From the IMG/VR virus record IMGVR_UViG_2737471841_000006, positions 1-21,794 of that record: a stretch of 21,794 bases of DNA. One strand, 5' to 3'. Under the pieces are notes generated by a model. The model made no database searches. It was not told where the DNA came from and worked only from the letters and a program-made list of their open reading frames with translations. Numbering within the stretch: the first letter of the stretch is position 1; every line of letters starts with the position of its first letter. The DNA is from a virus (taxonomy: Duplodnaviria; Heunggongvirae; Uroviricota; Caudoviricetes). Made by a program: the position numbers and the translations under genes. This document shows positions 1 through 15,417 of the stretch, in pieces.

Positions 1-1236
1 CTACGATAACCGCGCATTCAACATGGCTACCTGTTCGTCGTTCATGTCATCAATCCACATACCGTAAATTTCATACACCATCTGCGCAGTTTCATGCCCC
101 ATCTGGCTGGCTATAAACGCCGGGTTCGCTCCTGCCGTCAACAGCCAGCAGGCAAAAGTATGCCGCGTATGGTACGGATTACGGCGGCGAATACCAGCAC
201 GTTTTACTGCTGCATTCCATCTCGCACCCAAACTGCTTACCGAGTAATAAGGTTTCTGTTTTCCGTTACACACTCTGGGCATGAAAACAAAATGCAGTTT
301 TTGCTTTTCGGTTCTGCCGTACTCCCGATGGTAAAAAGTGATTTCGCCTTTGCGATGATGCCCGGTCAGTTTGTATTGCTCCTTCAGTGCTTCAAGAGCA
401 GGCTGCAGTAGCGTTACTGTCCGGATCCCGGCATTTGTTTTTGGGGGACCGAACATATCAAGTATCGTCAGGTTTCTTCTGACATTCACTATTCCCTTCT
501 CGAGATCCACATCCTCCCACGCCAGAGCTGCCAGTTCCCCGTGACGAAGTCCTGAGTAAACGGCAAATTTCCACAAGTTCTGGCTCTGTCCTTTTTCACT
601 TTCCATTAATGCATTGAATTCTGTTTTAGATAACGGATCAGGCTTTATTCTGTTTCGCTGTAATTTTTTTACTCCTTCAAATGGTTTGGTTGATATAAAT
701 CCCGACTGATACGCAAAACGTAACAGCGAACAGAGCAGGGCGATATAGTTATCAACTGTGCGCACGGTTCTTCCTTTTTTGTTGGATCTTGGATTATCCA
801 GGTAAAGCGTTTCTCCATGCAGCAGTTCATTCCGGTAGTTTAGGATATCGCTATAACGAATATGTGATATCGGGGTACTTTCACAAATTATTATTCTGAG
901 TGTTTTTAATTGTGATTTCGTTTTCTTCATTGTATTTGTTGTTAACTCTGTCTCTTTAATTTTTGTCCAGATATCACAAAGCTCCCCGAACGTTTTTATG
1001 ACTCTCGTTGTCACCATTTTTGCCCCAGTGCTGGACTGGGGAAAACGTCTTAAATACTCAAATTCACCGGAGTTTATTTCATGAACTATCAGCGCTCTTA
1101 AATTTCCGGCCTTTTTAATATTACTGTTTGTAATCTCCCAGCCTTTTAATGTTTCCCGACATCGTTTTCCTCGAAACATGAACCAGATGCGAATGTTTCT
1201 ACCTCTAATCTCGACACCTGTTGGTAATTTAGACAT
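1..1236 (-). CDS. intR: Tyrosine-type site-specific integrase (Rac prophage IntR-like), complete 411 aa
   Basis: 411-aa minus-strand ORF with ATG at 1236..1234 and TAG stop at 3..1 (window begins on the stop). C-terminal region has the tyrosine-recombinase signature (..HTRHTFACWLLTAGANPAFIASQMGHETAQMVYEIYGMW..). Matches my recollection of K-12 IntR in length and sequence. Confidence 0.92.
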   Translation of the reverse strand: MSKLPTGVEIRGRNIRIWFMFRGKRCRETLKGWEITNSNIKKAGNLRALIVHEINSGEFEYLRRFPQSSTGAKMVTTRVIKTFGELCDIWTKIKETELTTNTMKKTKSQLKTLRIIICESTPISHIRYSDILNYRNELLHGETLYLDNPRSNKKGRTVRTVDNYIALLCSLLRFAYQSGFISTKPFEGVKKLQRNRIKPDPLSKTEFNALMESEKGQSQNLWKFAVYSGLRHGELAALAWEDVDLEKGIVNVRRNLTILDMFGPPKTNAGIRTVTLLQPALEALKEQYKLTGHHRKGEITFYHREYGRTEKQKLHFVFMPRVCNGKQKPYYSVSSLGARWNAAVKRAGIRRRNPYHTRHTFACWLLTAGANPAFIASQMGHETAQMVYEIYGMWIDDMNDEQVAMLNARLS

Positions 1237-1237
1237 A

Positions 1238-1453
1238 TCATGAGTCTTTGATAAACTGATTTATCTTTGGATAGTTGTACCAGATAATCCCTCGTTTGCT
1301 GTCTGGCTTACCTAAAGGAGATACTCGTTTGAAGTGGAAGCCCTCCACCCAACAGTTCTGGCGGTATGCTTCAATTTGTCTGGCCCCCAGACCAGTGCGA
1401 AGCATCAGGCCGTATTCAACCATCCACTCTTCATTAAAGATTACTTGTGCCAT
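1238..1453 (-). CDS. ydaQ: Excisionase-like small DNA-binding protein (Rac xis / YdaQ-like), about 71 aa
   Basis: Small ORF immediately upstream of int on the same strand; its TGA stop (1240..1238) sits one nt from the int ATG. Start chosen at [10 protein letters not shown] (ATG 1453..1451); the track ORF extends to 1477 as an alternative start. Confidence 0.7.
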
Positions 1454-1552
1454 CGCATCACCTCTGGCAGGCGCCAATGTTAGACTGAAATTGACGCCTG
1501 ATGTTGATTATTAATAATCAGCTATGAAGTTTTAATTTGAATACAATGCAAT

Positions 1553-1741
1553 TCACGAGGACTGAAGTTTCTCGCAATTAAAATTTATCAGTTTTACTTT
1601 CTGCTCTCTGGAAACGCCTGCTTCTTTTTTACCTGAGAGCATTTTTTCGCATTCTGATTTCGTTAGTTTAGATTTTGAATATCTTGTCCAGTTAGTAGGA
1701 GTGCCACCTTCCTTTTCAATTGTAGCGGTAATTTTATACAT
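1553..1741 (-). CDS. ydaC: Rac prophage YdaC-like small protein
   Basis: Minus-strand ORF downstream of ralR. Start placed at ATG 1741..1739 (MYKITATIEKEGG..) because a GGAGG Shine-Dalgarno lies 7 nt upstream inside the last ralR codons. Alternative starts at 1753 or 1813. Confidence 0.5.
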   Translation of the reverse strand: MYKITATIEKEGGTPTNWTRYSKSKLTKSECEKMLSGKKEAGVSREQKVKLINFNCEKLQSS

Positions 1742-1940
1742 GAACGCCTCCATTAATATTTTCAGTGGTTCGTTTATTCCATCTTTCGAGCGCTTCTTTT
1801 TCACTTCCACCATAGCCAGTTCGGGATTCGCATCCGTTGCATTTTGCCCGGTAATATCCTGAAATGTCTTTCACCGTTACTGATGGACAACCACAAAACG
1901 GACATGGTTTAACATCGTCATATCTCAAAGTTTTTGTCAT
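1734..1940 (-). CDS. ralR: Restriction alleviation protein RalR/Lar, about 68 aa, with CPFCG..CNGC zinc-ribbon-like motif
   Basis: ORF MTKTLRYDDVKPCPFCGCPSVTVKDISGYYRAKCNGCESRTGYGGSEKEALERWNKRT.. matches the K-12 Rac RalR/Lar sequence as I recall it. ATG at 1940..1938; sits between recT and ydaC as in Rac. Confidence 0.75.
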   Translation of the reverse strand: MTKTLRYDDVKPCPFCGCPSVTVKDISGYYRAKCNGCESRTGYGGSEKEALERWNKRTTENINGGVHV

Positions 1941-1984
1941 AAAAACTATCTCACGTTGGCGGTGCATTACACCGCCAGGCTGGA

Positions 1985-2818
1985 TTATTCTTCTGGATTA
2001 TCGATTACACTGTATTCCCCGGCTATAACCGATATGTCGTCTGGATTAATTGTTTCCACCTCTTTTCCATCCATCGATACTGCACGCTGGATTTCAATAG
2101 ATACCGGCAGATACTTGAACAGTTTTCGTATCACTGTCTTTTTGGCCATGTCTTCAAAGTGTTCATCCCAGATGGACGACGCCCCTTTTGACGCTGCGTT
2201 TTTTGCCGCCTTGCTGTGTGTGTCGCGAACTTTTTCTACTTGTTTGCTGGTCATGACTTCAAACTGCACTCCTCCGTCTTTCAGTTTTGCAACAGCATAG
2301 ACATGGGTTATAGGGGCATCTTCGTTTTCACCGGGACGATGAACCAGTTTTTCATCAAGGCCAAGTTCATAGCTGAATTCATCACATTCACGGACAACAC
2401 GAGCTGACAGACTGATGATTTGACCTGATCGACGGGCAAGGTCGATCATGCCGCGATAACCGATGATCAGCTGTACGTTCTTCTTACCGTTTTTTGCTTT
2501 TCCGTTGCCGAACGGTAGCAGATATGCATGACCGAGGGCGCTACCTGGCTCAAGTCCGAGCTGTGAACACTGTACGATGGCACCGATAAAACTCGTCGAG
2601 TCACAGTTTCTTAGTTCCGGTACTTTACGGATTTCTGTTGTAGCAATGCGGATCATGCGTTCCGCTGTCATGTGACGTGGCAGAGCTGCTGCCAGTTGCG
2701 CTTTCATTGCCGGGCTGTTAATCACGCACAGCACATCCTTATCGTTAACTGCTGCTGGTGCACGGTTTCCCTGAGTTTTTTGCAGATCGGCTTTTGCGAT
2801 AGGTGGTTGCTTAGTCAT
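1985..2818 (-). CDS. recT: Recombinase RecT (single-strand annealing protein)
   Basis: ORF beginning [24 protein letters not shown].. and ending ..[11 protein letters not shown], recognisable as RecT. ATG 2818..2816 overlaps the recE stop (2813..2811) by 8 nt, the classic recE/recT coupling. Track ORF extends to 2875. Confidence 0.93.
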
Positions 2819-5462
2819 TTGCATACTCCTTAGCCCAGCGGGGCAGTGATAACGTCTTAATAGCTGGCCATTCATCGGTATTTAGGCAGTCAGCCAGGGT
2901 CCGCAGATTGCGGTGATATTCCTGCTGGCCTGCCAGTTTTGCTTCTTCGCCCATCATGAAAATCTCAACCGGATAACGTCCGCATTCAACAGTTGTGCTG
3001 GCAACCAGAAAAACGAAAGTTGGCTGCACACCAAACTGTGCTTCATAACCGTCACTGTAGAATGCATCCTGAACGTGATAGCGGTAGTCGTAATAAGCCA
3101 TTTTGAATCGTTGAATATCCGCTGTGGTTTTCACGTCCATGATCCAGTGAAATTCAGGAATAATTTTGTCCGGACGGCACCGACACAAAATTCCTGTTTC
3201 CGGATCTTCCCAGTAAATTGATGATTCAGCGTGTCCGGCGCTTTCAACAAGCCATTGCCCCAGCGGCAAAGCCATAACGCTTTGATACATGAGTTCAATT
3301 TTCCGGCCTTCTTCCGCAGTGATAACCGTTTTTCCTGTGCTTGCGCATTCCATCAGAAACGCTTTCTCTTCTTCTTTTCCGGCGTTTGTACGGCGGTTAA
3401 ATTCAGGTGCTACGATAAAGCGGTTACTGAATTCTTCCGGTTCAAGTACCCGGCAGTGGAAAGCGGTTCCTAAATCGAGCGTTTTTGTCTTTGTAGTGTC
3501 CACGGGGGCATTTTTACGCCACAAATACAGTGCCGGAGTATCAGCAATGTCATCGAGCTGAGACTTACTGACACCGGGACCCGCGTGGTAATTCTCATTC
3601 GAAATTCCGTAATAAATACCTGGCTCTATGTCTTCTACGATTACGGGATCTGCGACTTCGCCAGTTTCATCACTGCAATCGCGATGCGGATCGCTGCCAG
3701 CATTCTCATTGTGCGGATGTTCAGCGCCTTCCATTTCCTCCGGATCTTTTTCCTTAGCTTCAACCTGATTCTCTTCACCGAATGTTTCCTGGTATGTTGC
3801 GTCGCCCATCACCGCACCACAGTCAGGGCAGTTATCCCCGCCAGTCTGACCGCAGGCATTGCAGACTATTTCCGGTTCCTGTTGCACTACTGGCTCAGGT
3901 TGTTTCGCATCCGGGCTGATTTTTTCCGTTTCTGGCTGGTTCTGGTACACAGAATCGCGAGTCTGGATCCCCTTAACCCATTTCGGATCGTTCGGGTCGC
4001 TAATTCCGTCAACAAATTCACCACGTGATGCAGCAAGCAATTTATCGGCATCGACAGGATTTTTTGATGGAATGTTTTTCCGGGCTTCATGGAGTTCTGC
4101 CCGCAGTTCCTGATATTTCGCATCAACAGAATTTACCTGTGACTGAGCATCCAGCGGCTGCGTGTTCTGATGATGTTCAGTTGCATTCGGTTCCACTGTT
4201 TCAGCCGTTGCCTGTTCATCTGCCATTGCGCCAGATGGTTGTGGCTTTTCTTCATCGTCCTGTTTTCCTTCTTCTGTTACTCGCTGCGGCATCGGGGCCG
4301 AGGAGCGACCGCAGGCAATATCCACGATTTCCGGATCAGGGTTGGCATGATCGATTTCAGTCAGTACTTTGTTCAGATATTCAGTGACGTGTGCGGGGAT
4401 GACCTCGATCCCAATTGGTGCTTCTTTCACGGACGCAACCACGATGGCGCGGGAATAATCCAGCCCGCCAGGCATGGTGATGAATTTGTCGCGGAAAACA
4501 GAAAAGGGTGGTTTATTTTCAGCGATAATTTCCTCAATGCGTTTAGCGTGTGCCGGATGAAGGTTATAGATGTCCACGTCCATTGAACGGGCCAGTACGC
4601 CAGTGGCTACATCGCGCGCCAGTGACGTCAGATCGTGGACGAAACCTTCGCCGCGATCGGTGAGGTTCCCGCCGCCAGCATTAGCACCGGAAGCCGTGCG
4701 AGTGATGCGTGAAACACGATTCCCTTTTCGCCATTCTTTTGTCAGAAGACCGCGATCAATGTGTTCGGTATCCAGCCAGGCTGAAATGAAATTCTTAAAT
4801 TCATAGGGCTGATGTTTTTTCGTGATAGAGAACACTGCCTTAATTGCATCAGTCAGGCGGAGCAGGGCGGCATTATCCAGAGTTGTCGGTTCTGCCATGC
4901 TGCGTATGGCCAACAGCAGATTCTGGACATAGCTGTTTTCCTGATCCATCTCAAGAGCAGTAATGTGTTTGCGTTGTTCACGGGTGGCATGGTGCAGGTA
5001 TTTTCGATCCCCGGCTGCATACGTAAAAATGTGCAGAAGACGCTGCGTAAACCGCAAAGTGGCTACAGAGACTTCGCAATCCGGGCAATCCCCGTGAGCG
5101 CCTGCCAGTGTGTTTTCTTCCTGCCCTCCCGTCAGTTCTTCGGTTTCCTGGGCATTCTCCTGATGGTGAGCGTCGTCTGGTGCTGCTCCCGGTTTTAGTT
5201 CCCATGTCATGGAGTCTTTGCTGAGTTGATAGCGTTCACTCCAGGTAAAATCGATCTCACCTTCAGGGGGCAGGTCATTAACGACAGGAAAATTAGTGGC
5301 AACAGCTTTAAAATAGCTGCTCAGTTTTTTACCTGATTTGACGATCAGGTAGTCCAGAGTGGCGCAGGTCGATTCAAAATCGTCGCTTGCCCACAGGACG
5401 ACGTCAGGTTCACCGGATGATTTTTTCGCTTTCCGTAACAGGAAGAGTGGTTTTGCGCTCAT
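2811..5462 (-). CDS. recE: Exodeoxyribonuclease VIII (RecE), 883 aa
   Basis: Large minus-strand ORF; N-terminus [26 protein letters not shown].. and C-terminus ..[31 protein letters not shown] match RecE as I recall it. Central region appears divergent (mosaic) relative to my memory of the K-12 protein. Confidence 0.93.
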
Positions 5463-5563
5463 TGTTTTTTAACCTCAACTCAGATTAAAATTCGTTTTGT
5501 TCAGTGAATGATCTTGCCGGATACACACTGTTCATAGCCTGCGCCATACGCAGGCTATTTCTT

Positions 5564-5839
5564 TCAGATTTCACCTTTTAATTTCATTGCAATCAGCGTT
5601 GCCAGAAATGCGGCTTTTTTTTCTGCGGGCAGATTCTTACCAATGTGCACCAGACTCATTTTTTTGACACCTTCGTTAAGTGTTTTAACGTTGCCTGATG
5701 GACCATCGATATCAACCACAGTGAATGGGGTTTCTTTATTTTGTGTTTTAATCACGTGGCCAATGCGTTTTCCTTCCAGATAAACCTCGTGAACAATGTT
5801 ATCAGTAGTAACAACAGTGGATTCATAATTGGCAATCAT
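5564..5839 (-). CDS. racC: Rac prophage RacC-like protein, 91 aa
   Basis: ORF MIANYESTVVTTDNIVHEVYLEGKRIGHVIKTQNKETPF.. with AAGGAG Shine-Dalgarno 6 nt upstream of ATG 5839..5837. Track ORF extends to 5887. Confidence 0.75.
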   Translation of the reverse strand: MIANYESTVVTTDNIVHEVYLEGKRIGHVIKTQNKETPFTVVDIDGPSGNVKTLNEGVKKMSLVHIGKNLPAEKKAAFLATLIAMKLKGEI

Positions 5840-5913
5840 GTTTTTCTCCTTAATTAAGGTTGAGCGAATCCCTGCCATTGTTGGCATAAATTCAGTTTCG
5901 AGTAGTCAGTTAA

Positions 5914-6084
5914 TTAAAGTTCGTGTGCCATCTGGTGTTTTTCGGCGCAACTTTCACTACAATATTTTTTCATTTCCGTCGTTGGGATAACTCCACGCAT
6001 GAAATGAAGTGGTATTTTAATACTTTTGCTTTCTTGAATTTCTTTATTGCAAAGGTGGTAAGCACATTTGATTTTCTTAGCCAT
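5914..6084 (-). CDS. ydaE: Small Cys-rich (zinc-binding-like) protein YdaE-like, 56 aa; not in the supplied ORF track (<60 aa)
   Basis: Hand translation of the minus strand from ATG 6084..6082 gives [58 protein letters not shown], with TAA at 5916..5914. The ATG overlaps the kilR TGA (TGATG). Position between kilR and racC matches Rac gene order. Confidence 0.65.
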   Translation of the reverse strand: MAKKIKCAYHLCNKEIQESKSIKIPLHFMRGVIPTTEMKKYCSESCAEKHQMAHEL

Positions 6085-6305
6085 CACCATGATTCCGCTT
6101 TTACAGGTAAACCATCACGACCGAGGAAGACTTTAATCATGCAGTCAGAAATGCATGTTTTTGTAGTCAGGCTACGAATATAAAGTTTTCGCTTTTTAAT
6201 ATTGTTTGCCGAGGCGATATATGTCCGACCTTCATGAAGAACATAATCGCCAGGGGTTACACACTGACGTGGTATTTCATCAGTTCCGAAGTGATGAGCA
6301 ATCAT
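6084..6305 (-). CDS. kilR: Killing protein KilR (FtsZ-targeting cell division inhibitor), 73 aa
   Basis: [76 protein letters not shown] matches K-12 KilR as I recall it. GGAG lies 6 nt upstream of ATG 6305..6303. Two further in-frame ATGs at 6311 and 6317. Confidence 0.8.
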
Positions 6306-6744
6306 AATCATCTCCATTTTTTCAAATGAACTTTGTTGATGCGGTGCCTAGTGCCTCCAGGTGATGTTAACCAGTTAACAATTAACACCGGATACAAATA
6401 CCCCCCCAAACTAATATAGAGTTTTTTAACTGTTCCGCGTGCGCTTAGCCGCATTCACCGCATCACAAAATTCACTTTAAAAAGGGCGGACATCAGTCGA
6501 ACTTCAAGAAAAAACCGATGCCGCCAAAGACTACACACAGCAATGTCGTTATTCACAACCGGAGGCGCACTCCCACCATTTATATTTAACAGACAAGACC
6601 GACTCTTTATTGATACCGGAAATGCGCCTTCGTGTTGTGCCCGGTTTTATTTCACCACCTCCGGGCTTCGGTGGTCTCGGCTATACCCCTACAGCGAGAG
6701 CTTGTGTTAACATTTCAATACCCTTACAGTCGAGAGTTATTGAA

Positions 6745-7234
6745 ATGTTGGATGTATTTACTCCATTGTTGAAACTTTTTGCTAAAGAGCCACATCGAAA
6801 GACTTATGTACACGATTATCATTTTTGGCCTCACTCTCTGGCTGATACCGAAAGAGTTTGCTGTCGTATTTAATGCTTATACTGAAATAACCTGGCTCTT
6901 TCAGATTATAGTTTTTGCCTTTTCTTTCGTGGTTGCCATTTCCTTCTCAAGATTGCGAGCACATATTCAAAAACATTATTCATTGCTACCAGAGCAACGA
7001 GTATTGCTTCGTTTATCTGAGAAAGAAATCGCTGTATTTAAAGATTTCCTTAAAACAGGAAATCTTATTATCACTTCTCCTTGCCGTAACCCGGTTATGA
7101 AAAAATTAGAACGGAAGGGCATCATTCAACATCAGAGTGATGGCGCAAACTGTTCTTATTATCTCGTCACCGAAAAATACTCCCACTTTATGAAGTTATT
7201 CTGGAACAGTAGGAGCAGACGTTTTAATCGTTAG
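6745..7234 (+). pseudogene. sieB: Superinfection exclusion protein B (sieB), reading frame broken by an apparent 1-nt insertion near 6792-6796
   Basis: MLDVFTPLLKLFAKEP (frame of ATG 6745) switches frame and continues as ..IERLMYTIIIFGLTLWLIPKEF..SRSRRFNR in the 6779..7234 ORF. 16 + 1 + 145 residues gives 162 aa, the intact SieB length. First in-frame ATG after the shift is at 6806. Confidence 0.6.
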
Positions 7235-7386
7235 CTTACTGTGTACTTCTCCAACCAGCGACGCGCGCCAACTTCGGTTTTAAACGTTTTGCTTTTGGTA
7301 TACGTCATGGCGGTGAACGTTCCATCCTGGTTGGGGAACACGCCACACACCAGGGATTCGTTGTTGCTAAGATCGATAGTATCCAT
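7231..7386 (-). CDS. ydaF: Rac prophage small protein YdaF-like, 51 aa
   Basis: ORF MDTIDLSNNESLVCGVFPNQDGTFTAMTYTKSKTFKTEVGARRWLEKYTVS from ATG 7386..7384, with AAGGGA upstream. TAA stop at 7233..7231 overlaps the sieB TAG (7232..7234) on the opposite strand. Confidence 0.65.
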   Translation of the reverse strand: MDTIDLSNNESLVCGVFPNQDGTFTAMTYTKSKTFKTEVGARRWLEKYTVS

Positions 7387-7517
7387 GTTGACCTCATTTT
7401 CCCTTAACGCTGGGGGAATTGGCTTCATAGTTGCTCCGTATCGTGGAGCCTACGACCTGCTTTTAACCACATCAGGTGAGGTGATATCCTTACAAATGGT
7501 AATTTGCTGTAAGGATA

Positions 7518-7796
7518 TTAATTATGGATATTAAATTTCGCTGTCCTCATTGCCGATCTCGCTACATTGAGATCGACGAGCACTCTGGCTCTGACAATGA
7601 TCGTTTTATCTGCGGTGATTGTTTTGCGGAAATCAAAGATTCTGATTTCAGTGAACACTTTAATAAAACAATCAATAAAATCATCCGGACAGTTAAAAAC
7701 CGCAGGAACAAGTAGTTTGTATAACTTCTCAATCTGATGTCTCAGGGGGCTGGTATCTATTTTTAACACCAGTCCCTGCTTTTCATCTGCGATCAT
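7518..7796 (-). CDS. ydaG: YdaG-like protein, 92 aa here; first gene of the putative leftward early operon
   Basis: ORF MIADEKQGLVLKIDTSPLRHQIEKLYKLLVPAVFNCPDDFIDCF.. with TAAGGGA 7 nt upstream of ATG 7796..7794. Lies directly downstream of the PL-like promoter and operator repeats. A plus-strand ORF fully overlaps it (see findings), so the true coding strand is uncertain. Confidence 0.45.
   Translation of the reverse strand: MIADEKQGLVLKIDTSPLRHQIEKLYKLLVPAVFNCPDDFIDCFIKVFTEIRIFDFRKTITADKTIIVRARVLVDLNVARSAMRTAKFNIHN
7524..7715 (+). CDS. Candidate 63-aa zinc-ribbon mini-protein antisense to the ydaG-like ORF
   Basis: ORF MDIKFRCPHCRSRYIEIDEHSGSDNDRFICGDCFAEIKDSDFSEHFNKTINKIIRTVKNRRNK. Has a CxxC-x17-CxxC arrangement, a basic C-terminal tail, and AAGGA Shine-Dalgarno 8 nt upstream of the ATG. 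Called on sequence features only. Confidence 0.35.
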   Translation: MDIKFRCPHCRSRYIEIDEHSGSDNDRFICGDCFAEIKDSDFSEHFNKTINKIIRTVKNRRNK

Positions 7797-7867
7797 CTTC
7801 GTATCCCCTTAACGCCGGGTGGCGGAACTGTTTGCTGAGAACACCGTGCGGTGTTTTGATGGGATGT

Positions 7868-7896
7868 AATTTAGTTTTCTCATTGTTTTTGGTCAA
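7868..7896 (-). promoter_or_regulatory. Putative sigma70 leftward early promoter (PL-like): -35 TTGACC, 17-nt spacer, -10 TAAATT on the minus strand
   Basis: Minus strand reads TTGACC(7896..7891)-17 nt-TAAATT(7873..7868), about 70 nt upstream of the ydaG-like ATG. Operator-like repeats lie in the spacer and over the -35. Confidence 0.35.
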
Positions 7897-7932
7897 GTGT
7901 TTTTGATGAGAAAACTCAATATTTGACTCAAG
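7871..7932. promoter_or_regulatory. Left operator-like cluster: repeated TGAGAAAACT / CTCAA(T/G) motifs (putative RacR binding sites)
   Basis: 7871-7885 ttagttttctcattg (reverse complement caatgagaaaactaa); 7906-7920 atgagaaaactcaat; 7927-7932 ctcaag. The 17-mer tgagaaaactcaatatt recurs exactly at 8443-8459 on the other side of racR. Confidence 0.4.
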
Positions 7933-7983
7933 ATAAAGCCAATACATTGAAATGTAAGGCTTTAAAAATTTGTGATGGGGTGA

Positions 7984-8391
7984 TTATTGATGTTTGTTAC
8001 GCTTGCGAGCTTCTAATAGCTCAGTAAATAGGCGATTAAAATTCTCAACTCGAGCGCTGAGTTCACTGATTTGTGCTTGTTGTTCGGATTTTGGAAGTGC
8101 GCGATACAGTCGCAACATCTCCAGTTCATCTTCCGATAAGTCTAAGGTGCTATTGAGTGAAACTGGGGCATCCGGAGTTTTATCCTCATCACCGAACAGT
8201 ATCCAGGTCGGTGAGCATTGTAATACCTCGGCGAGTCTATGCAAATTTTGCCCGCGCGGGGCTGTATGGTCACTTTCCCATAATGAAATTGATGAGCCAG
8301 AAACGCCAGCAGCTTTGCTTAAACCACTTTGACTTAAGCCTACCTGCTTGCGTCTTTCTCTAATTCGTTGACCTAAAGTTTTCTCGTTCAT
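7984..8391 (-). CDS. racR: Prophage repressor RacR-like (XRE-family helix-turn-helix), 135 aa from this start
   Basis: ORF MNEKTLGQRIRERRKQVGLSQSGLSKAAGVSGSSISLWESDHTAPRGQNLHRLAEVLQCSPTWILFGDED.. has a typical XRE HTH at the N-terminus. Divergent from the cro-like ydaS and flanked by operator-like repeats. Upstream in-frame ATG at 8442 (152 aa) is an alternative start; neither has a clear Shine-Dalgarno. Confidence 0.75.
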   Translation of the reverse strand: MNEKTLGQRIRERRKQVGLSQSGLSKAAGVSGSSISLWESDHTAPRGQNLHRLAEVLQCSPTWILFGDEDKTPDAPVSLNSTLDLSEDELEMLRLYRALPKSEQQAQISELSARVENFNRLFTELLEARKRNKHQ

Positions 8392-8412
8392 ATTTAGATA
8401 TCTTAATAACCC

Positions 8413-8458
8413 TTGACTTGAGATTCCTTGAGCGATTAACATTGAGAAAACTCAATAT
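8413..8458. promoter_or_regulatory. Right operator/promoter region: PR-like promoter (-35 TTGACT 8413-8418, -10 TAACAT 8437-8442) overlapped by palindrome ATTGAG-AAAA-CTCAAT (8441-8456)
   Basis: TTGAG half-sites at 8418, 8428 and 8442, with inverted CTCAAT at 8451-8456. GGAGG Shine-Dalgarno (8460-8464) and ydaS ATG (8469) follow immediately. Confidence 0.4.
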
Positions 8459-8468
8459 TGGAGGTGCA

Positions 8469-8597
8469 ATGTTTAAATCAGACGTAATTAATTATTACGG
8501 CACGAAAGCCAAAGTGGCGAAAGCTGCTGGCGTTGATCCATCTGCTGTTTCTCAATGGGGGGAAGCCGCAAACGATCGTCGGTTTCAAAATTGGTAA
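8469..8597 (+). pseudogene. ydaS: Cro-like HTH protein stub (YdaS-like), 42 aa; probably truncated at a deletion junction
   Basis: Hand translation gives MFKSDVINYYGTKAKVAKAAGVDPSAVSQWGEAANDRRFQNW then stop; not in the track (<60 aa). Good GGAGG Shine-Dalgarno. Only the HTH portion is present, a G6 run sits at 8557-8562, and a terminase frame takes over immediately. Confidence 0.5.
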
Positions 8598-9543
8598 TGC
8601 GCTGGTGGATGAACTGGACATTTTGCCGAAGGAAAAAGCCAGAACTGCGTGGCGCAAGATAATTGCGCGTATGCGTTATAAGGTTGATGGACTTCGCAAC
8701 GGTATTGACGTTACAACCACGCCAGAAGGATTCAAATTTGTCTACGAGCAGTTTGTTAAAGCCGTGCGTGAAAAAACAGAGTTGTCCTCACTGTATGGTC
8801 TGGTGCAGGCATCTACTTTCGATAATGAAAAGAACCTGCCAGCAGATTACATTCCTTCGCTTCTTGAATCATACCCTCCAGAGCTGATTAAAGCCTATCT
8901 TCGTGGACAGTTTACGAACCTGACAAGTGGTACTGTTTACCATCAGTTTGACCGGCAACTGAATAATTGCGAAGAAGTGGAGCAGCCTGGGGAGCCGATT
9001 TATATCGGGATGGATTTTAACGTTGGAAAGATGGCGGGGATCGTCCATGTGCTGCGTTTGGGTCTTCCATGTGCGGTAACTGAAATCATCAATGCCTACG
9101 ATACGCCGGATATGATCCGTATCATTAAAGAACGCTTCTGGCTGTATGACGGAAATGATTACCGGAAGGTGAGAGAAATTTATATTTATCCTGATGCCTC
9201 CGGGGATTCCCGAAAATCAAATAATGCAAGTGCGACGGATATTGCTCAGCTTAAACAGGCCGGTTTTAACGTTGTGGTGAACAGTTCGAACCCGCCAGTA
9301 AAAGATCGCGTTAACTCAATGAATGCAATGTTCTGCAATGCCAATGGCGAGCGTCGCTATAAAGTTAATGTGAAGCGTTGTCCGGTATATGCCGAATCTC
9401 TGGAGCAACAGGTCTGGGATGATAAGGGGGAGCCTGATAAAAAATCTGGCAACGATCACCCGAATGATGCAGGAGGTTATTTCATCGTTAAACAATTCCC
9501 TATTGTCAAACCGACCGGAAGAGTCACATCACTTCGGATTTAA
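8533..9543 (+). pseudogene. Terminase large subunit, N-terminally truncated fragment (Walker B-like segment plus complete nuclease domain; no Walker A)
   Basis: 336-aa frame with ALVDELD (Walker B-like) and nuclease-domain acidic motifs IYIGMDFNVG, IYPDASGD and GNDHPNDAGGY. No GxxxxGK(S/T) P-loop anywhere. Frame is open from 8488 with only a TTG at 8533. Sits directly after the cro-like stub, where replication and lysis genes would be expected. Confidence 0.6.
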
Positions 9544-9545
9544 TT

Positions 9546-9923
9546 ATGGCTGATATATCAACACCCAACCTCGACTATAACGATATGCTGGAGGCGTGGG
9601 ATATTAACGACGCACTGATGGGCGGTACGCTTGAAATGCGCAGGCAGGGAGAAAATTATCTCCCAAAATGGCCTAACGAAGATGAAGACGCTTATAAAAA
9701 ACGCCTGTCCGTGGCTACGCTACTTCCTGTGTATGAAGAAAGCATTAAGCAAAATATTGGGCGCATATTTGCAGAGCCGACAGTATTGAGTGAGGAAACG
9801 CCGGAAAAAATCAGGGAATATGCAGAAAATATCGACATGGAGGGGAGCCGACTGGATGTGTGGGCGCAGCAATTTTTCAGCCTCGCATTTCAGTATGGTG
9901 TGGCACATGCGCTGGTGGATTAA
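9546..9923 (+). CDS. Hypothetical 125-aa head-module protein; possibly the N-terminal stub of a portal protein
   Basis: ATG overlaps the terL stop (TAATTATG). Position (after terL, before scaffold-like and capsid genes) is where a 500-700 aa portal gene normally lies. No Shine-Dalgarno; followed by a strong intrinsic terminator. Confidence 0.35.
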   Translation: MADISTPNLDYNDMLEAWDINDALMGGTLEMRRQGENYLPKWPNEDEDAYKKRLSVATLLPVYEESIKQNIGRIFAEPTVLSEETPEKIREYAENIDMEGSRLDVWAQQFFSLAFQYGVAHALVD

Positions 9924-10012
9924 AGGCGAATGGTTGACACTGAAGCAACTCCGGGAGCGTGATGCTCAGGCATTCAGAAACGCAGGGATTTAAATAAATC
10001 ATTTATTACAAC

Positions 10013-10039
10013 AGGCTACCTTCGGGTGGCTTTTTTTTT
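10013..10039 (+). terminator. Rho-independent terminator (7-bp stem, UUCG tetraloop, U9 tail)
   Basis: aggctacc-ttcg-ggtggct followed by ttttttttt at 10031-10039. Confidence 0.6.
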
Positions 10040-10051
10040 GCTGCGATCCGG

Positions 10052-10861
10052 ATGGTGAGCAGCGTAACTGTCGGAAGACTTAAACCAGGTACTAATATGA
10101 AACTGAAAACGGTCGAGATTAACGGAAAACAATACGCAGAAATTGATACTGCTGGCCTTCCAGTTTATGTGCACGACGATGGTAAAGAAATCGGCTTCGA
10201 TGCACCGCTGGCGACAAAAAAAATTACAGAGCTTAATGGCGAGGCAAAAAATCATCGTCTGGCTAAAGAAGCTGCAGAGGAAAAACTGGCTAAGTTTGCC
10301 GCTATCGAAGACCCGAAGAAGGCAATCGAGGCACTGGAAATGCTGTCAAAAATCGACCAGAAAAAGCTGATCGATGCGGGACAGGTTGACCAGGTAAAGG
10401 CAGATATTACGAAAAACTTTCAGCAGCAATTAGACGAAGAAAAGCAACGCTCTCAGATGCTGGAGAAGCAGCTTTACGATTCCATGATTGGCGGTAGTTT
10501 TGCGGGGTCAAAATATATTGCCGATAAAATTGCGATCCCGGCAGATTTATTACAAGCCCGCTTCGGACAGGCATTCAAAGTGGAAGAAGGGAAGATAGTT
10601 GCCTATGACGCTTCCGGCAACAAAATTTATTCCCGCTCGAAGCCAGGCGAACTGGCGCAGTTTGATGAGGCGCTGGAGTTCCTCGTCGAAAATTACCCTC
10701 AGAAAGACTATATCCTGAAAGCCAGTGGTAACAATGGCGGCGGCTCTCGTCCGACACAGCATGATATTGGTCAGAAAACGATGAAACGCTCTGCTTTCGA
10801 TGCACTGGATGTTGCAGGTAAGCAAAATGCACTGAAAGACGGTATCACAATCGTTGATTAA
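10052..10861 (+). CDS. Putative capsid scaffolding protein (helical, charged, coiled-coil-like), 269 aa
   Basis: Lies immediately upstream of the major capsid gene. Composition is rich in E/K/A/Q with heptad-like stretches (..LAKEAAEEKLAKFAAIEDPKKAIEALEMLSKIDQKKLIDAGQVDQVKADITKNFQQQLDEEKQRSQMLEKQL..). Alternative start at ATG 10097 (MKLKT..). Confidence 0.45.
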   Translation: MVSSVTVGRLKPGTNMKLKTVEINGKQYAEIDTAGLPVYVHDDGKEIGFDAPLATKKITELNGEAKNHRLAKEAAEEKLAKFAAIEDPKKAIEALEMLSKIDQKKLIDAGQVDQVKADITKNFQQQLDEEKQRSQMLEKQLYDSMIGGSFAGSKYIADKIAIPADLLQARFGQAFKVEEGKIVAYDASGNKIYSRSKPGELAQFDEALEFLVENYPQKDYILKASGNNGGGSRPTQHDIGQKTMKRSAFDALDVAGKQNALKDGITIVD

Positions 10862-10960
10862 TACATTTGCCAGCTTCCGGATGGGAGCTGGTGTCAGGGC
10901 TGGATAGCTCACTACTCAATCCATTGAAAAATTACGCAAATTTTTAAGGAATATTTAATT

Positions 10961-12100
10961 ATGGCTGGAAATACCCTGACCGGGTTGATCCCGACTATTT
11001 ATACCGCCCTGAATGTTGTATCCCGTGAGCAGGTAGGTTTTATCCCTGCTGTAGCAAAAAACGCAAAAGCTGACGCCGCAGCAAAAGATCAGACGGTAAC
11101 CGCGCCAGTTGCACCTGAGGCGAAAACCGAAGATATCGTACCGGGGCCGTCAGCTCCGAATACCGGTGATCAAAATATTGGTACTGTTGATGTAAAAATA
11201 ACTAAATCCAAAATGGCACCGGTTAAATGGAATGGTGAAGAACAACTGGCTCTTGGCCCTTCCGGGACTTACAACACCATTCTGGCTGATCAGTTTAAGC
11301 AGGCTTTTCGCGCCCTTGCAAACGAGGTTGAGGCTGATCTTGGTGCGCTGTATTTCGGTACTTCCCGCGCCGTGGGAACTGCAGGGACAACGCCGTTTGG
11401 TGTTAAAGATGATCTTTCTGATGCTGCTTTGGCTCGCCAGGTTCTGGAGGATAACGGCGCACCGACAACCGATCTGCAGATGGTGCTTGGCTCCACTGCC
11501 ATTGCGAATTTGCGCGGAAAACAGTCTGTATTGTTTAAAGTGAATGAATCCGGCACTGAACAGCTACTGCGTGAGGGCGTGTTAGGGCGTCTGGAGGGAT
11601 TCAATATTCACAGTTCGGCAGGTGTAAAACGAGCGCCGAAGGTTGCTGCAACTGGTTATCTCGTGAATGGCGAGAAAAAAGAAGGCGATGTTCTTATTTC
11701 CATTGATACTGGTTCGGGGAGTATTTCGGCAGGTCAGATTGTTACGTTCGCTGGCGATCCGAATCAGTATGTTGTGGCAGCAGCGACCAGCAATCTGATT
11801 ACTCTTGCTGCGCCTGGACTGCGTCAGGATCTGGCCGATGATACTGTAATCACGGTTGTCGGCTCCTTTACTGCAAATATGGCGTTTGATCGCAACGCAT
11901 TTCTGCTGGCGTCCCGTACCCCGGCAATGCCGGAAGGTGGCGATAATGCTGATGATGTAATGAATGTTACGGACCCGATCTCAGGAATTACGTTCCAGAT
12001 TGCCCTGTATCGTCAGTATCGCCAGGTTCGCTATGAAGTTGGACTGGCATGGGGTGTTTCATCGGTGAAGCCGGCGCATGGTTGTCTGATTCTTGGTTAA
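10961..12100 (+). CDS. Putative major capsid (coat) protein, 379 aa
   Basis: Size and position between the scaffold-like gene and the head-tail connector genes. AAGGA upstream of the ATG. Followed by a hairpin terminator, as is common after highly expressed capsid genes. Confidence 0.6.
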   Translation: MAGNTLTGLIPTIYTALNVVSREQVGFIPAVAKNAKADAAAKDQTVTAPVAPEAKTEDIVPGPSAPNTGDQNIGTVDVKITKSKMAPVKWNGEEQLALGPSGTYNTILADQFKQAFRALANEVEADLGALYFGTSRAVGTAGTTPFGVKDDLSDAALARQVLEDNGAPTTDLQMVLGSTAIANLRGKQSVLFKVNESGTEQLLREGVLGRLEGFNIHSSAGVKRAPKVAATGYLVNGEKKEGDVLISIDTGSGSISAGQIVTFAGDPNQYVVAAATSNLITLAAPGLRQDLADDTVITVVGSFTANMAFDRNAFLLASRTPAMPEGGDNADDVMNVTDPISGITFQIALYRQYRQVRYEVGLAWGVSSVKPAHGCLILG

Positions 12101-12110
12101 ACATCCAAAC

Positions 12111-12131
12111 GGGGCTTCGGCCCCATTTTTT
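12111..12131 (+). terminator. Intrinsic terminator or attenuator after the capsid gene (GGGGC-UUCG-GCCCC then AUUUUUU)
   Basis: ggggcttcggcccc followed by attttttaa, 11 nt after the capsid stop and 13 nt before the next gene's ATG. Confidence 0.5.
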
Positions 12132-12143
12132 AATGGAGGGTAT

Positions 12144-12368
12144 ATGGCTGGATTAACTAAAGAGCAAAGAGCACAGCGTGAAGCCGCGCAAAAAAATGCA
12201 GTGGCGGAGCAGAATGTGGAGCAAATTCAGGATCCTCAAAAAACACAGATTGAGTTGGTGGTTATGATGACCGATCATCAGATGTTTCCCGGCGCACCAA
12301 CTATCGCTAATGTTCATCCTGAAGAAGTTGATAACTGGAAGGCTCTGGGCTGGAAAACTCAGGAGTAA
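12144..12368 (+). CDS. Small head-associated protein, 74 aa
   Basis: ATG 12144 preceded by GGAGGG Shine-Dalgarno (MAGLTKEQRAQREAAQKNAVAEQ..). Track ORF start at 12093 would overlap the capsid gene and terminator. Confidence 0.45.
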   Translation: MAGLTKEQRAQREAAQKNAVAEQNVEQIQDPQKTQIELVVMMTDHQMFPGAPTIANVHPEEVDNWKALGWKTQE

Positions 12369-12371
12369 CAC

Positions 12372-12767
12372 ATGATCACTTATGTGACCTGTGATGACGT
12401 TGATAATGCGCTTGGGAATGCCTGGGCGAGCGAGAACGCTAAAAATAAAGCTGTTTTAATGGCTAATGCCTGGCTTAATGGCTTCAACCTGAAAATTAAC
12501 CCATCCCGTATTCCGGAAGAGATAAAGCTTGCGGGAGCATATGCAGCCAGAAGTGCCTCTCTCGGTAAGTTGTTTCAGCAGAAAAATGATTCTGGCGTTG
12601 TTATCAGTAAAGCCGTGTCGGCTGACGGGATCAGTGTATCGAAATCATTTGCTCAGTTGCCAGCAAATAGTACTGCATTGCTTGAGCCCGATTTACAGCT
12701 TGCAATAGCACTGCTGAAACCGTACGGGCTTAGTCGCTCACAAGTCAGGGTTGTGAGGGGGGGATGA
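12372..12767 (+). CDS. Head-tail connector / adaptor protein (gp6-like), 131 aa
   Basis: AGGAG Shine-Dalgarno 6 nt upstream. Size and position are right for the first neck gene after capsid; N-terminal region looks like phage gp6-type connector proteins. Confidence 0.5.
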   Translation: MITYVTCDDVDNALGNAWASENAKNKAVLMANAWLNGFNLKINPSRIPEEIKLAGAYAARSASLGKLFQQKNDSGVVISKAVSADGISVSKSFAQLPANSTALLEPDLQLAIALLKPYGLSRSQVRVVRGG

Positions 12768-13150
12768 TGGGACTTCGTGAAGAGATTCAGTCAGAGGTTG
12801 CCGCTGCTTTTGATGAAGAGTTAGCGGACGCTGTGAGTGATTTTTCTGGTTCTTATTCTATGTACCGGTACTGGGATCCTGTGACGGAAACTGGTGACGA
12901 ATTCACAACAACCTATACCGGGCGAGGCGTGTTGGCACGTTATAAGCTGAACAGAATTGATGGGATTAATATTTTGCATGGTGACCTTAAATTAACCGTT
13001 CTGGTATGCGAGGTTACGGATAAACCCGCGGTCGGCCATATTATTGAGACTTATGATCCTGTATCAAGGCAGTTGCAACGATACGAGGTAATTACAGCGA
13101 GTGTAGATCCTTCCGCATCAGTTTACTCACTCCAGTTAAGGAGGACGTAA
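12764..13150 (+). CDS. Head closure / head-tail joining protein, 128 aa
   Basis: ATGA start/stop overlap with the upstream gene (translational coupling); neck-module position. Confidence 0.45.
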   Translation: MMGLREEIQSEVAAAFDEELADAVSDFSGSYSMYRYWDPVTETGDEFTTTYTGRGVLARYKLNRIDGINILHGDLKLTVLVCEVTDKPAVGHIIETYDPVSRQLQRYEVITASVDPSASVYSLQLRRT

Positions 13151-13531
13151 ATGGCAAAGGCATGGGATATAGAACCGTCAATATTTGCCGGGATGATTGA
13201 GGAAGATGTGGGACTGAAAATTCGCTACATCGCTATTCAGATTCTTACGGCCATTGATATTGCTGCTCCGGTTGATACCGGGCGTTTCAGAAATAACAAC
13301 CTGGTGTCGTTACAGCATCCCGATTTTGGTATATCTGATAACGTGGATCCGAACGGTACGATTGCGGTTCAGCGTGGGATCGGGGTTATTTCGAAAGCTG
13401 CAAATTACGGAATTATTTATATCCAGAATAACCTTCCTTATGCAGAGGTTCTTGAAAACGGTCATTCACAACAAGCGCCAACTGGCGTGTATGCCAATGC
13501 TTTTCATGGTGTTTTACAGGCTTACAAATGA
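13151..13531 (+). CDS. Neck protein of the HK97 gp10 family (tail completion / head-tail adaptor), 126 aa
   Basis: Contains DTGRFRNNN, resembling the DTGrLRnS signature of the HK97 gp10 family. AAGGAGG Shine-Dalgarno upstream. Confidence 0.5.
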   Translation: MAKAWDIEPSIFAGMIEEDVGLKIRYIAIQILTAIDIAAPVDTGRFRNNNLVSLQHPDFGISDNVDPNGTIAVQRGIGVISKAANYGIIYIQNNLPYAEVLENGHSQQAPTGVYANAFHGVLQAYK

Positions 13532-13920
13532 CGTTTACTGAAATCAGAAATGCTGTCATTTCCAGAATGACGGCACAGACGGTTATTGATGGAAAAGACG
13601 TATTGTATCCGAACGGGCCAACGTTCGATCCTTCCGGTAAGTTAATCTGGGCGCGGTTAAGTAATATCCCCGGTCTGGCCGGAGTTAACGAAATTGGCGC
13701 GGGGCCGGTTGTTTATCGCACGGGGATAATCATTATTCAGTTATTTGTCCCCGCTGGTTCTGGTTCAAAACTCATTACTGAGACGGCCGATACCTTGCGG
13801 GAGCTGTTTGAGTTTCAGGATGATGATCGTCTCAGTTACCAGGCCGTTTCCTCAATAGCTGTTGGCGAAAAGAATGGCTGGTTCCAGCTTAATCTTCAAA
13901 TTCCATATCGCGCACTCTAG
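13528..13920 (+). CDS. Tail terminator / tail completion protein, 130 aa
   Basis: ATGA overlap with the upstream gene; last small gene before the major tail gene. Confidence 0.45.
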   Translation: MTFTEIRNAVISRMTAQTVIDGKDVLYPNGPTFDPSGKLIWARLSNIPGLAGVNEIGAGPVVYRTGIIIIQLFVPAGSGSKLITETADTLRELFEFQDDDRLSYQAVSSIAVGEKNGWFQLNLQIPYRAL

Positions 13921-13946
13921 CGCAATTAATGACATAGGAGGCTCCT

Positions 13947-14909
13947 GTGAGTTCAGGTGCAAAGGTTATCTCGGCATTTATCCGGGAGACAGTTGCAGGC
14001 ACCACGCCAGCAAGTGGTGACTGGAGTTTATTAAAACGCACAAGCTGGGGAGTAAAACCCACCCAGAATAAAGGCGAAAATAATGAGATCGGCGGCTCCC
14101 GGATGGCTCAGGGGGCAACGCCTGGCACTGTGGATGTTGGCGGTGATGTTGGTACCAAATTTCGCTGGGGTCAACATGATGATTTTCTTGCATCCTGTTT
14201 CGGCGCGGAATGGTCAGGCGATTCTCTGACAATGGGAAATGAGCGAATAACATTTTCTCTGGCGACCTATGCGTCCGATGTCGGAATTGCCTCTGTCATC
14301 AGAGGAGCGCAGGTGGGGTCATGGAAAATGCAGATCCCTAACGATGGTGATATTACGGCGACCGTAACCTTTGCCGGGCTGGACTGGGAATCAAAGGCCG
14401 ATGATACGAATTTTATCACAGGCGAACCTGTGGATAGCGCAGGAGAGCTACGTTATTCGTTTAAGGAGGTTTCAGCAGTAAGCCTGAATGGTGTTGCCGG
14501 AGGTAACGGTTTTTGTATCGACAGTTTTGATATTCAGTTCGATAACAAACTCCAGACTCAGCGTTGTATCGGGACTGGCTCGCCTTATGCAGGAGCAAAT
14601 ATTCCTACTACCTTTACACCGTCCGGTACGGTGACGCTTTCATGGTCTAAAGCTGCGTGGGAAATCTGGAGTAAAACACTGACTGGAGAAACAGTTCCGT
14701 TCAGCTTCACGCTTTCGAATGGAGAGGGGGCATACACTTTCAGTTTTCCGAAGGTTCAGGTGTCAGGTGAATGGCCTGACGGTGGTAATACCGACATTAT
14801 CCAGGTTCAACTGAGTATTACCGCAGCAGATGAAGCGCCTACGATAACCAGAAAAAAAGCCTCTCCGGCTGCCGTGATCGCAAAAGCCAGTGCTGAGGCG
14901 ATTAGTTGA
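13947..14909 (+). CDS. Putative major tail (tube) protein, 320 aa, GTG start
   Basis: GTG 13947 preceded by AGGAGG with 5-nt spacing. Lies immediately upstream of the tail assembly chaperone and tape measure genes. Ser/Thr/Gly-rich composition; weak hairpin at 14923-14946 downstream. Confidence 0.55.
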   Translation: MSSGAKVISAFIRETVAGTTPASGDWSLLKRTSWGVKPTQNKGENNEIGGSRMAQGATPGTVDVGGDVGTKFRWGQHDDFLASCFGAEWSGDSLTMGNERITFSLATYASDVGIASVIRGAQVGSWKMQIPNDGDITATVTFAGLDWESKADDTNFITGEPVDSAGELRYSFKEVSAVSLNGVAGGNGFCIDSFDIQFDNKLQTQRCIGTGSPYAGANIPTTFTPSGTVTLSWSKAAWEIWSKTLTGETVPFSFTLSNGEGAYTFSFPKVQVSGEWPDGGNTDIIQVQLSITAADEAPTITRKKASPAAVIAKASAEAIS

Positions 14910-14955
14910 TTTTCCGTTATTTCCCCTGTGGTGTTGCACTACAGGGACGTTTTGA

Positions 14956-15417
14956 ATGAGGTTATGGATGTTTATTCTTAATCAGAAAATTATCATCGGT
15001 GGAGAACGCTGGTTTACGCCAATGAAGGACTTAAAACCTGTAGATGGGTTAAAACTGTTGGTGGCAAGCAGCGATAACGATCAGTATCGCTCCCGTAATG
15101 CATTAATCCGTCGTCACATAGAGAAAATGGATGCCAGTTTGCATGTCGGAACGAAAGAATTTGATATTGCAAAGGTCGACGAGGTGGATTCTGTTGATGA
15201 TTTACTTATTGATAACGCCGCTCGTTATTTACTGAAAGACTGGAAAGGGGTTGGTGAACTGGTGGATGGGGTTGAGGTCGCGCTGGAATATACACCAGAG
15301 CGAGGGGCCACGCTGCTCAAGCAGAATCCAGAGTTGTACTGGCAAATTCTTGCTGAAGCCGCCAGCATCGCCCAGGGAAAAGAGCAGCAGAAGCAGGATA
15401 CGATAAAAAAGCCATAG
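14956..15417 (+). CDS. Tail assembly chaperone (lambda gpG analogue), zero-frame product, 153 aa
   Basis: Gene directly upstream of the tape measure module, ending 6 nt after a canonical slippery heptamer. AGGGA 8 nt upstream of the ATG. Alternative starts at 14968 or 15022. Confidence 0.6.
   Translation: MRLWMFILNQKIIIGGERWFTPMKDLKPVDGLKLLVASSDNDQYRSRNALIRRHIEKMDASLHVGTKEFDIAKVDEVDSVDDLLIDNAARYLLKDWKGVGELVDGVEVALEYTPERGATLLKQNPELYWQILAEAASIAQGKEQQKQDTIKKP

Follow-up and report, generated by a model that had tools for sequence, protein, structure and literature searches.

The window, i.e. the whole stretch of 21,794 nucleotides of viral DNA analyzed here, starts at the stop codon of intR, and on the source contig (L007) a ttcA-type gene (PF01171) lies directly upstream. 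Our intact reference is the ttcA-integrated (Rac-site) full-size lambdoid prophage of E. coli E21845/O/A (NZ_CP076272.1, locus L003), with which the IntR-type tyrosine integrase IntR and the XisR protein share 100% identity; by these features the element belongs to the Rac-site group. The early-left genes ralR-recT-recE-kilR, sieB and a divergent repressor/cro pair are all present, and all are full length except for a frameshifted sieB and a truncated cro. Among the remaining genes intR, xisR, ralR, recT, recE, kilR, the repressor, the major capsid, tail tube and lom genes and the tape measure are full length with 98-100% amino acid identity to the reference; sieB alone departs from this, its match beginning at residue 17. 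In sieB (window 6745-7234) a 1-bp insertion near 6793 (CACATCG versus CAC-TCG in E21845/O/A) shifts the frame after about 16 codons; the product called there by gene callers has 142 aa and begins at an internal start codon. The sieB of the related prophage 13P484A is likewise flagged as frameshifted in RefSeq. The CI/RacR-type HTH repressor (7987-8391, minus strand) is intact and 100% identical at the amino acid level to WP_001406916.1 of the intact prophage. RefSeq relatives annotate it with 135 aa, the longest ORF is 7984-8442 (152 aa), and Pfam returns HTH_3 (2.4e-15) together with a weak Phage_CI_repr match. Between repressor and cro a consensus scan, the only basis for this feature, finds a candidate PR-like promoter (TTGACT-18-TAACAT, 8413-8442, plus strand), whose putative function is suggested by its location upstream of cro.

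On the plus strand, cro is reduced to codons 1-32 of 75 (8469-8564), identical to intact cro until 8564, the equivalent of L003 11306. The first-pass annotation had read 42 codons of a cro-like HTH protein of the YdaS family here. An ORF of that length does run from an ATG at 8469 to a TAA at 8595-8597 (product MFKSDVINYYGTKAKVAKAAGVDPSAVSQWGEAANDRRFQNW, followed by the stop), but alignment assigns only its first 32 codons to Cro. The last ten codons (AANDRRFQNW) and the stop, at 8565-8597 on the plus strand, are translated from DNA of the terL block; since the two reading frames differ by one base, the ORF consists of 32 Cro codons and ten out-of-frame terL codons. The family label does not hold either. 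Against Pfam P22_Cro (PF14549, cut-off 30.2 bits) the stub covers profile positions 2-32 of 60 with 44.7 bits and the intact 75-aa Cro scores 66.5 bits, whereas for YdaS_toxin (PF15943, cut-off 30 bits) the stub reaches 18.6 and the intact protein 21.7 bits, both under the cut-off. Membership in PF15943 was therefore rejected, and the name YdaS would suit this Cro only as a positional analogue. The helix-turn-helix is kept in the remnant while the C-terminal 43 codons (33-75) are gone, which leaves the domain of about 60 positions incomplete. A G6 homopolymer (GGGGGG, 8557-8562, plus strand) spells part of the native codons W30-G31-E32 and abuts the crossover. The first-pass annotation had placed this run at or near the junction; that location stands, but the run is already found in intact L003 cro (CAATGGGGGGAACTGG) and was neither made by the junction nor is it the shared microhomology, which is GAA.

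Directly to the right follows the terL remnant, codons 108-433 at 8563-9543 on the plus strand (tblastn residues 108-433, 100% identity). Its frame is open from 8488, reads GKPQTIVGFKIGNALVDELD from about 8560 onwards and stops at 9541-9543. Of the 433 residues of intact TerL, 25-32 form Walker A (AGFGSGKT) and 120-124 Walker B (ALVDE). Walker A has gone with the deleted 107 codons; Walker B and the RNaseH-like nuclease domain survive in the remnant. In Pfam terms only positions 89-213 of 215 of Terminase_6N are covered, i.e. the ATPase domain is incomplete, as opposed to positions 1-154 of 155 of Terminase_6C (E = 1e-10). We found no ATG near the start of the frame and no in-frame start with a ribosome-binding site in the remnant; the starts that have been assigned are TTG 8533 (ORF list) and GTG 8605 (gene callers). 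The earlier description of a terminase gene without N-terminus, ATG or Walker A is thus borne out, and the stub ORF, the open terL frame and the G-run all lie where it had placed them. Neither the cro' ORF nor the terL fragment would be expected to be functional.

When the region is searched by megablast against complete genomes, the match breaks exactly at the G-run: up to 8564 the hits are to a repressor/Cro pair, and from window 8559 on to terL and portal of many prophages with up to 99.9-100% identity. Both halves of the junction were found in one prophage, that of E21845/O/A, where they lie about 16.5 kb apart (megablast, 5,426 complete E. coli genomes). Compared with L003 by BLAST over its full length, the window falls into four collinear blocks of 96-99.9% identity separated by gaps of 16,542, 2,055 and 3,664 bp. 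Block 1 pairs window 1-8564 with L003 2744-11306 (99.5%), block 2 window 8559-9922 with L003 27843-29206 (99.9%), block 3 window 9921-20018 with L003 31260-41357 (99.8%) and block 4 window 20017-21794 with L003 45020-46797 (96.0%). The window is an L003-type prophage minus three internal segments, and we refer to the three joints as J1, J2 and J3.

J1 joins cro codon 32 to terL codons 107/108, out of frame, with 16,542 bp missing relative to L003. The left parent reads CAATGGGGGGAA followed by CTGG (CTGGTT when extended), the right parent GATGGAGAA followed by GCCGC (in a longer view GATCGATGGAGAA followed by GCCGCA), and the window itself CAATGGGGGGAAGCCGCA. The G at 8561 occurs in the left parent only and the G at 8565 in the right parent only, so the crossover lies inside the GAA at 8562-8564, which a three-way alignment finds in both parents and to which no strand applies. 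In cro this GAA is codon 32 (E32); in terL it is made up of the third base of codon 107 and the first two bases of codon 108. Aligning the region to an intact relative, which the first-pass annotation had proposed as a check, has accordingly placed the breakpoint and revealed a 3-nt microhomology. Interrupted homology flanks the GAA (ATGG...GAA, or GGnGAA at 5 of 6 positions). Under a random model a 3-nt microhomology has P ~0.05 and the three junctions together (3, 2 and 2 nt) P ~0.014, so a single 3-nt match is only modestly above chance; the break itself, placed within 3 nt by pairwise alignment to an intact relative, is not a chance pattern. The pattern of J1-J3 fits microhomology-mediated illegitimate joining, a mechanism suggested by the anatomy of the junctions. 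An IS-mediated or site-specific deletion was considered and rejected, as J1 shows neither an IS remnant nor inverted or att-like repeats.

The missing L003 interval, with functions taken from RefSeq annotation and PHROGs, starts with cro codons 33-75 and ydaT, which encodes a CII-like activator (phrog_163), and continues with the replication genes (an O-like initiator, phrog_2509, and a DnaC-like loader, phrog_50), several small genes, hokD among them, and a Q-like antiterminator for late-gene activation (phrog_753). Two holins and a GH108 endolysin (phrog_315) make up the lysis genes. The toxin cargo comprises a subtilase-family AB5 toxin pair and an LT-II-type enterotoxin A/B pair, and near the packaging genes ynaK (ParB-like), a GREB1/TAGT-like gene, terS (phrog_51) and terL codons 1-107 are lost. 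Replication, antitermination, lysis and small-terminase genes had been noted as absent from the sequence alone, and all of them fall within this 16,542-bp gap. They are not located elsewhere in the element, because the four collinear blocks cover all 21,794 bases. Natural short forms do not account for the stubs either, as the full-length homologues have 75 aa for Cro (462 contigs) and 433 aa for TerL. On its gene content the element is a cryptic or defective prophage, in which genes for replication, late activation, lysis, packaging, portal and tail tip are gone. The earlier proposal that it had lost replication, lysis and packaging but kept RecET and its immunity switch is right as to the losses, RecET and the repressor; the switch is only half kept, because Cro is truncated and the repressor half survives. 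In L003 the subtilase-family AB5 toxin (EplBA) and the LT-II-type enterotoxin A/B genes lie around the lysis genes at 18862-23067. The window element is a remnant of this prophage family without toxin genes. Prophages that share the immunity region of the window carry differing cargo, and the ancestor of the window element may or may not have carried the toxins.

The two other joints are of the same kind. At J2 (9921/9922) a deletion of 2,055 bp, with TA as microhomology, has taken the rest of the portal gene and nearly all of the minor head gene, which have PHROG portal and head morphogenesis matches, respectively, when intact. What is left is a portal (DUF4055) stub of 125 of 468 codons (9546-9923, plus strand), which ends at J2, and the last ~26 codons of the minor head (Mu F-like) gene (window 9921-10050). 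J3 (20017-20018, unstranded) has lost 3,664 bp, again with TA as microhomology, and joins codon 94 of a tail M-like gene to codon 521 of gpJ (window 19736-20029 and 20017-21794), removing the L-, K- and I-like genes and the 5' half of gpJ. No assembly other than the source yielded its chimeric 97-aa product, which lies there on a contig that ends 2 nt after the window. The gpJ part is 96% identical to the reference prophage and 100% identical to gpJ elsewhere in another genome (Ceylon31), which suggests either a mosaic tail gene or a join that may have involved the gpJ of another prophage.

The endpoint of J2 lies 4 nt to the 3' side of the Chi site GCTGGTGG at window 9911-9918, with GCTGGTGG-ATTA joined to AAGG. 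In a separate deletion in a ~97% identical Rac-like lineage the same portal position is joined to host sitB (GCTGGTGG-ACTA to GCGG), and both Chi-adjacent joints have TA at +3/+4 after Chi as microhomology; the sitB event was found via the identical 125-aa product, a search biased towards exactly the same position. The shared portal endpoint also occurs at the end of the 125-aa stub in L006, L008, L009 and L012-L015, at L018 4352-4370 and at L019 5990-6010. The Chi at J2 is oriented such that RecBCD arriving from the deleted side recognizes it, and L003 has only 7 Chi sites in this orientation in 47 kb. According to Taylor and Smith (1985), the final RecBCD cut on the 3'-ended strand reportedly falls 4-6 nt beyond Chi on its 3' side. 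The J2 endpoint looks like the end of a Chi-arrested RecBCD resection that may then have been captured by end-joining. This explanation is restricted to J2; a Chi origin was rejected for J1 and J3, neither of which has a Chi in an orientation able to protect the retained end, and the Chi at 8601-8608, 37 nt to the right of J1, points the wrong way. That same Chi encodes the Walker B of terL (GCG CTG GTG GAT = ALVD), and the portal Chi encodes the same ALVD. In L003 five same-orientation Chi sites cluster in terL, portal and minor head gene (27885-30354), versus one in the rest of the prophage.

A look-up of the 125-aa portal stub also led to two sister elements, L010 (GCA_005400305.1) and L011 (ERR3333576), which match the window at every shared base (13.7 kb in L010, 13.5 kb in L011); the sole listed mismatch, at 8561, falls within the junction zone. 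Both have J2 and the same SieB gene call (142 aa). Since J2 is common to the window, L010 and L011, it is at least as old as J1. The early deletion of the sisters is a different one: L003 11412 is joined to 24571 with loss of 13,160 bp, from cro codon 67 to ynaK, with TA microhomology. A 92-aa Cro fusion results, with ynaK', the TAGT-like gene, terS and a full-length terL still in place. Measured against these sisters, the gap at J1 shrinks to 3,382 bp. L010 additionally has a tape-measure-to-tail-fibre deletion with TG microhomology; junction coordinates in L010 are 5742-5743 and 17056-17057. TA occurs at three of five independent junctions (J2, J3 and the cro-ynaK joint of L010), with GAA at J1 and TG at the third junction of L010; a TA-specific cutting activity was dismissed as too weakly founded on these numbers.

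How far can J1 be trusted, and could it be more than debris? The window comes from a draft assembly of short reads, where it matches JUDJ01000023.1 (GCA_000798295.1) with 100% identity, beginning at the stop codon of intR and ending 2 nt short of the end of the contig. A chimeric contig join at a short repeat, with the intervening prophage DNA still in the genome, would come to mind for such a contig. It is nevertheless highly improbable. The exact 42-aa chimera is also present on Logan contigs from SRR2239585 and SRR29037622, although the two runs could share a strain or project with the NCBI assembly. The SRR2239585 contig (L004, 12,138 nt) covers window 6460-18597, including J1 and J2, at 100% identity, and the SRR29037622 contig (L005) spans J1. 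Because J1 recurs in these separately built assemblies of two SRA runs as well as in the NCBI assembly, and because a k-mer assembler would not join sequences via 3 shared bases, far under any assembler k-mer, a misassembly is unlikely on this indirect, assembly-level support; the element moreover has two further clean deletions, one of them also seen in other assemblies. J1 is rare all the same. By exact sequence, the 42-aa stub occurs on 3 contigs and the 92-aa fusion on 17, compared with 462 contigs that have the intact 75-aa Cro; megablast with junction-spanning queries found none of J1, J2, J3 and the L010-type junction in 5,426 complete E. coli genomes, and the exact 33-nt J1 string has no match in GTDB species-representative genomes, which means no more than that the source is not one of these representatives. 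J1 is new only insofar as it is absent from all complete RefSeq E. coli genomes. A functional product can be imagined at the joint: the terL frame (GGG AAG) is offset by one base to the right of the cro frame (TGG GGG GAA), such that the loss of one G brings them in frame. A +1 ribosomal slip or a G6-to-G5 mutation would then fuse Cro(1-31) to TerL(108-433), an HTH-nuclease protein under PR and the repressor; alternatively the element might be a satellite-like derivative. We find this hardly credible. There is no sign of selection or conservation, the stub being present on only 3 contigs, and the Cro part would be without its C-terminal helices and the TerL part without half of its ATPase domain, while portal and gpJ are also truncated, unlike in a working satellite. 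That J1 is an adaptive domestication and not neutral debris, with the G6 possibly acting as a slippage switch to such a fusion, we regard as very unlikely, too. If it were true, the Cro truncation together with the loss of YdaT, replication and lysis would make loss of the repressor non-lethal, and it would place the late operon (capsid, tail tube, the outer-membrane protein Lom, tape measure) directly under PR and the repressor.

Whether J1 arose in one step or two is a closer question. A single 16.5-kb deletion from an intact early region, independent of the 13.2-kb deletion of the sisters, involves the same number of events as a nested history, and its 16,542-bp gap is measured directly against L003. 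Where the portal had already been lost, selection against lethal early and lysis genes could also bring about such deletions more than once, each starting immediately right of the repressor gene. Against this, the single deletion needs an ancestor with J2 and an intact early region, and no such element was seen in the 5,426 complete genomes or in the contigs examined. Furthermore, the shared DNA holds no real base differences from L010 and L011, which leaves very little time for two separate large deletions. We consider the single deletion a possible but rather doubtful course of events, and it seems somewhat more probable that J1 was built by two nested deletions. The first would have been the 13.2-kb cro-to-ynaK deletion, as in an L011-like ancestor. 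The second, of another 3,382 bp, would have reached from cro codon 32 to terL codon 107/108 and erased the older junction, terS and the 5' end of terL. The nested order is not provable, because the second deletion would erase the first junction.

With either number of steps, J1 is almost certainly a genuine scar of an illegitimate, microhomology-mediated deletion in a Rac-like (ttcA/intR-integrated) lambdoid prophage of E. coli. The two ends were joined at the common GAA, flanked by imperfect homology (ATGG..GAA), and the joint has left a 42-codon chimeric cro' ORF and a terL fragment without promoter, start codon or Walker A. Together with J2 and J3, this makes the element a locked-in cryptic prophage that keeps integrase, excisionase, RecET, RalR, KilR and the repressor. 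The comparison with intact relatives supports the earlier interpretation of the cro/terL joint as a deletion scar. Stepwise deletional decay of prophages is textbook knowledge, and J1 is real but ordinary, a case of routine prophage decay.

The element resembles known systems in several respects. Rac of K-12, with the gene order that we take to be intR-ydaQ-ralR-recET-racC-kilR-sieB-racR-ydaS-ydaT and so on, presumably also retains ydaU and ydaV. Like the window element, Rac is integrated beside ttcA, carries intR, xisR, ralR, recT, recE, ydaE, kilR, sieB and ydaF as well as a divergent repressor/Cro pair, and is defective via internal deletions (Jobling 2018, PMC5917428). The two differ in immunity type, which in the window involves a Cro of the P22_Cro family, and in their breakpoints: K-12 Rac keeps ydaS and ydaT and is without head genes, whereas the window is without the genes from ydaT through terS and keeps capsid, tail tube and tape measure. 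Full-size Rac-like prophages with LT-II and AB5 toxins are described from type II ETEC, e.g. E21845/O/A, NADC1036 and 442/2, in PMC5917428 (citing Jobling 2016). They share 99.5-99.9% nucleotide identity across the retained window DNA and provide the intact reference for J1-J3, but they hold the 16.5-kb early/lysis/toxin/terS segment and have complete portal, minor head and tail-tip genes. An intact terL-portal-head module, 96.6% identical, is also present in isolated phages, namely Escherichia phages with names in vB_EcoS- and Salmonella phage SPF_0923. For alternative end-joining (A-EJ), or short-homology illegitimate recombination, in E. coli, PMC6990116 (citing Chayot et al. 2010) and PMC3375238 give a microhomology of 1-9 nt used after end resection. 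The junctions of the present lineage, with 2-3 nt, are similar, with the difference that here the anatomy of the junctions alone points to the mechanism. A phage satellite (PICI or capsid-forming PICI) was rejected in view of terL, portal, M-like gene and gpJ being truncated mid-gene and the near-100% identity to a full prophage.

What does the scar mean? Intact parent, probable intermediate and final form are all available at near-identical sequence, making this a well-resolved case of stepwise decay. For annotation, the 42-aa 'Cro' and 312-aa 'terminase' calls in the window and in related assemblies are pseudogene fragments, and the element should be scored as a predicted non-inducible cryptic prophage. 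As the segment missing here encodes LT-II and subtilase-family toxins in the nearest intact relatives, such deletions can silently yield a harmless remnant of a toxin-converting phage. Finally, the Chi-anchored endpoint of J2 suggests that RecBCD and Chi may set where prophage deletions stop.
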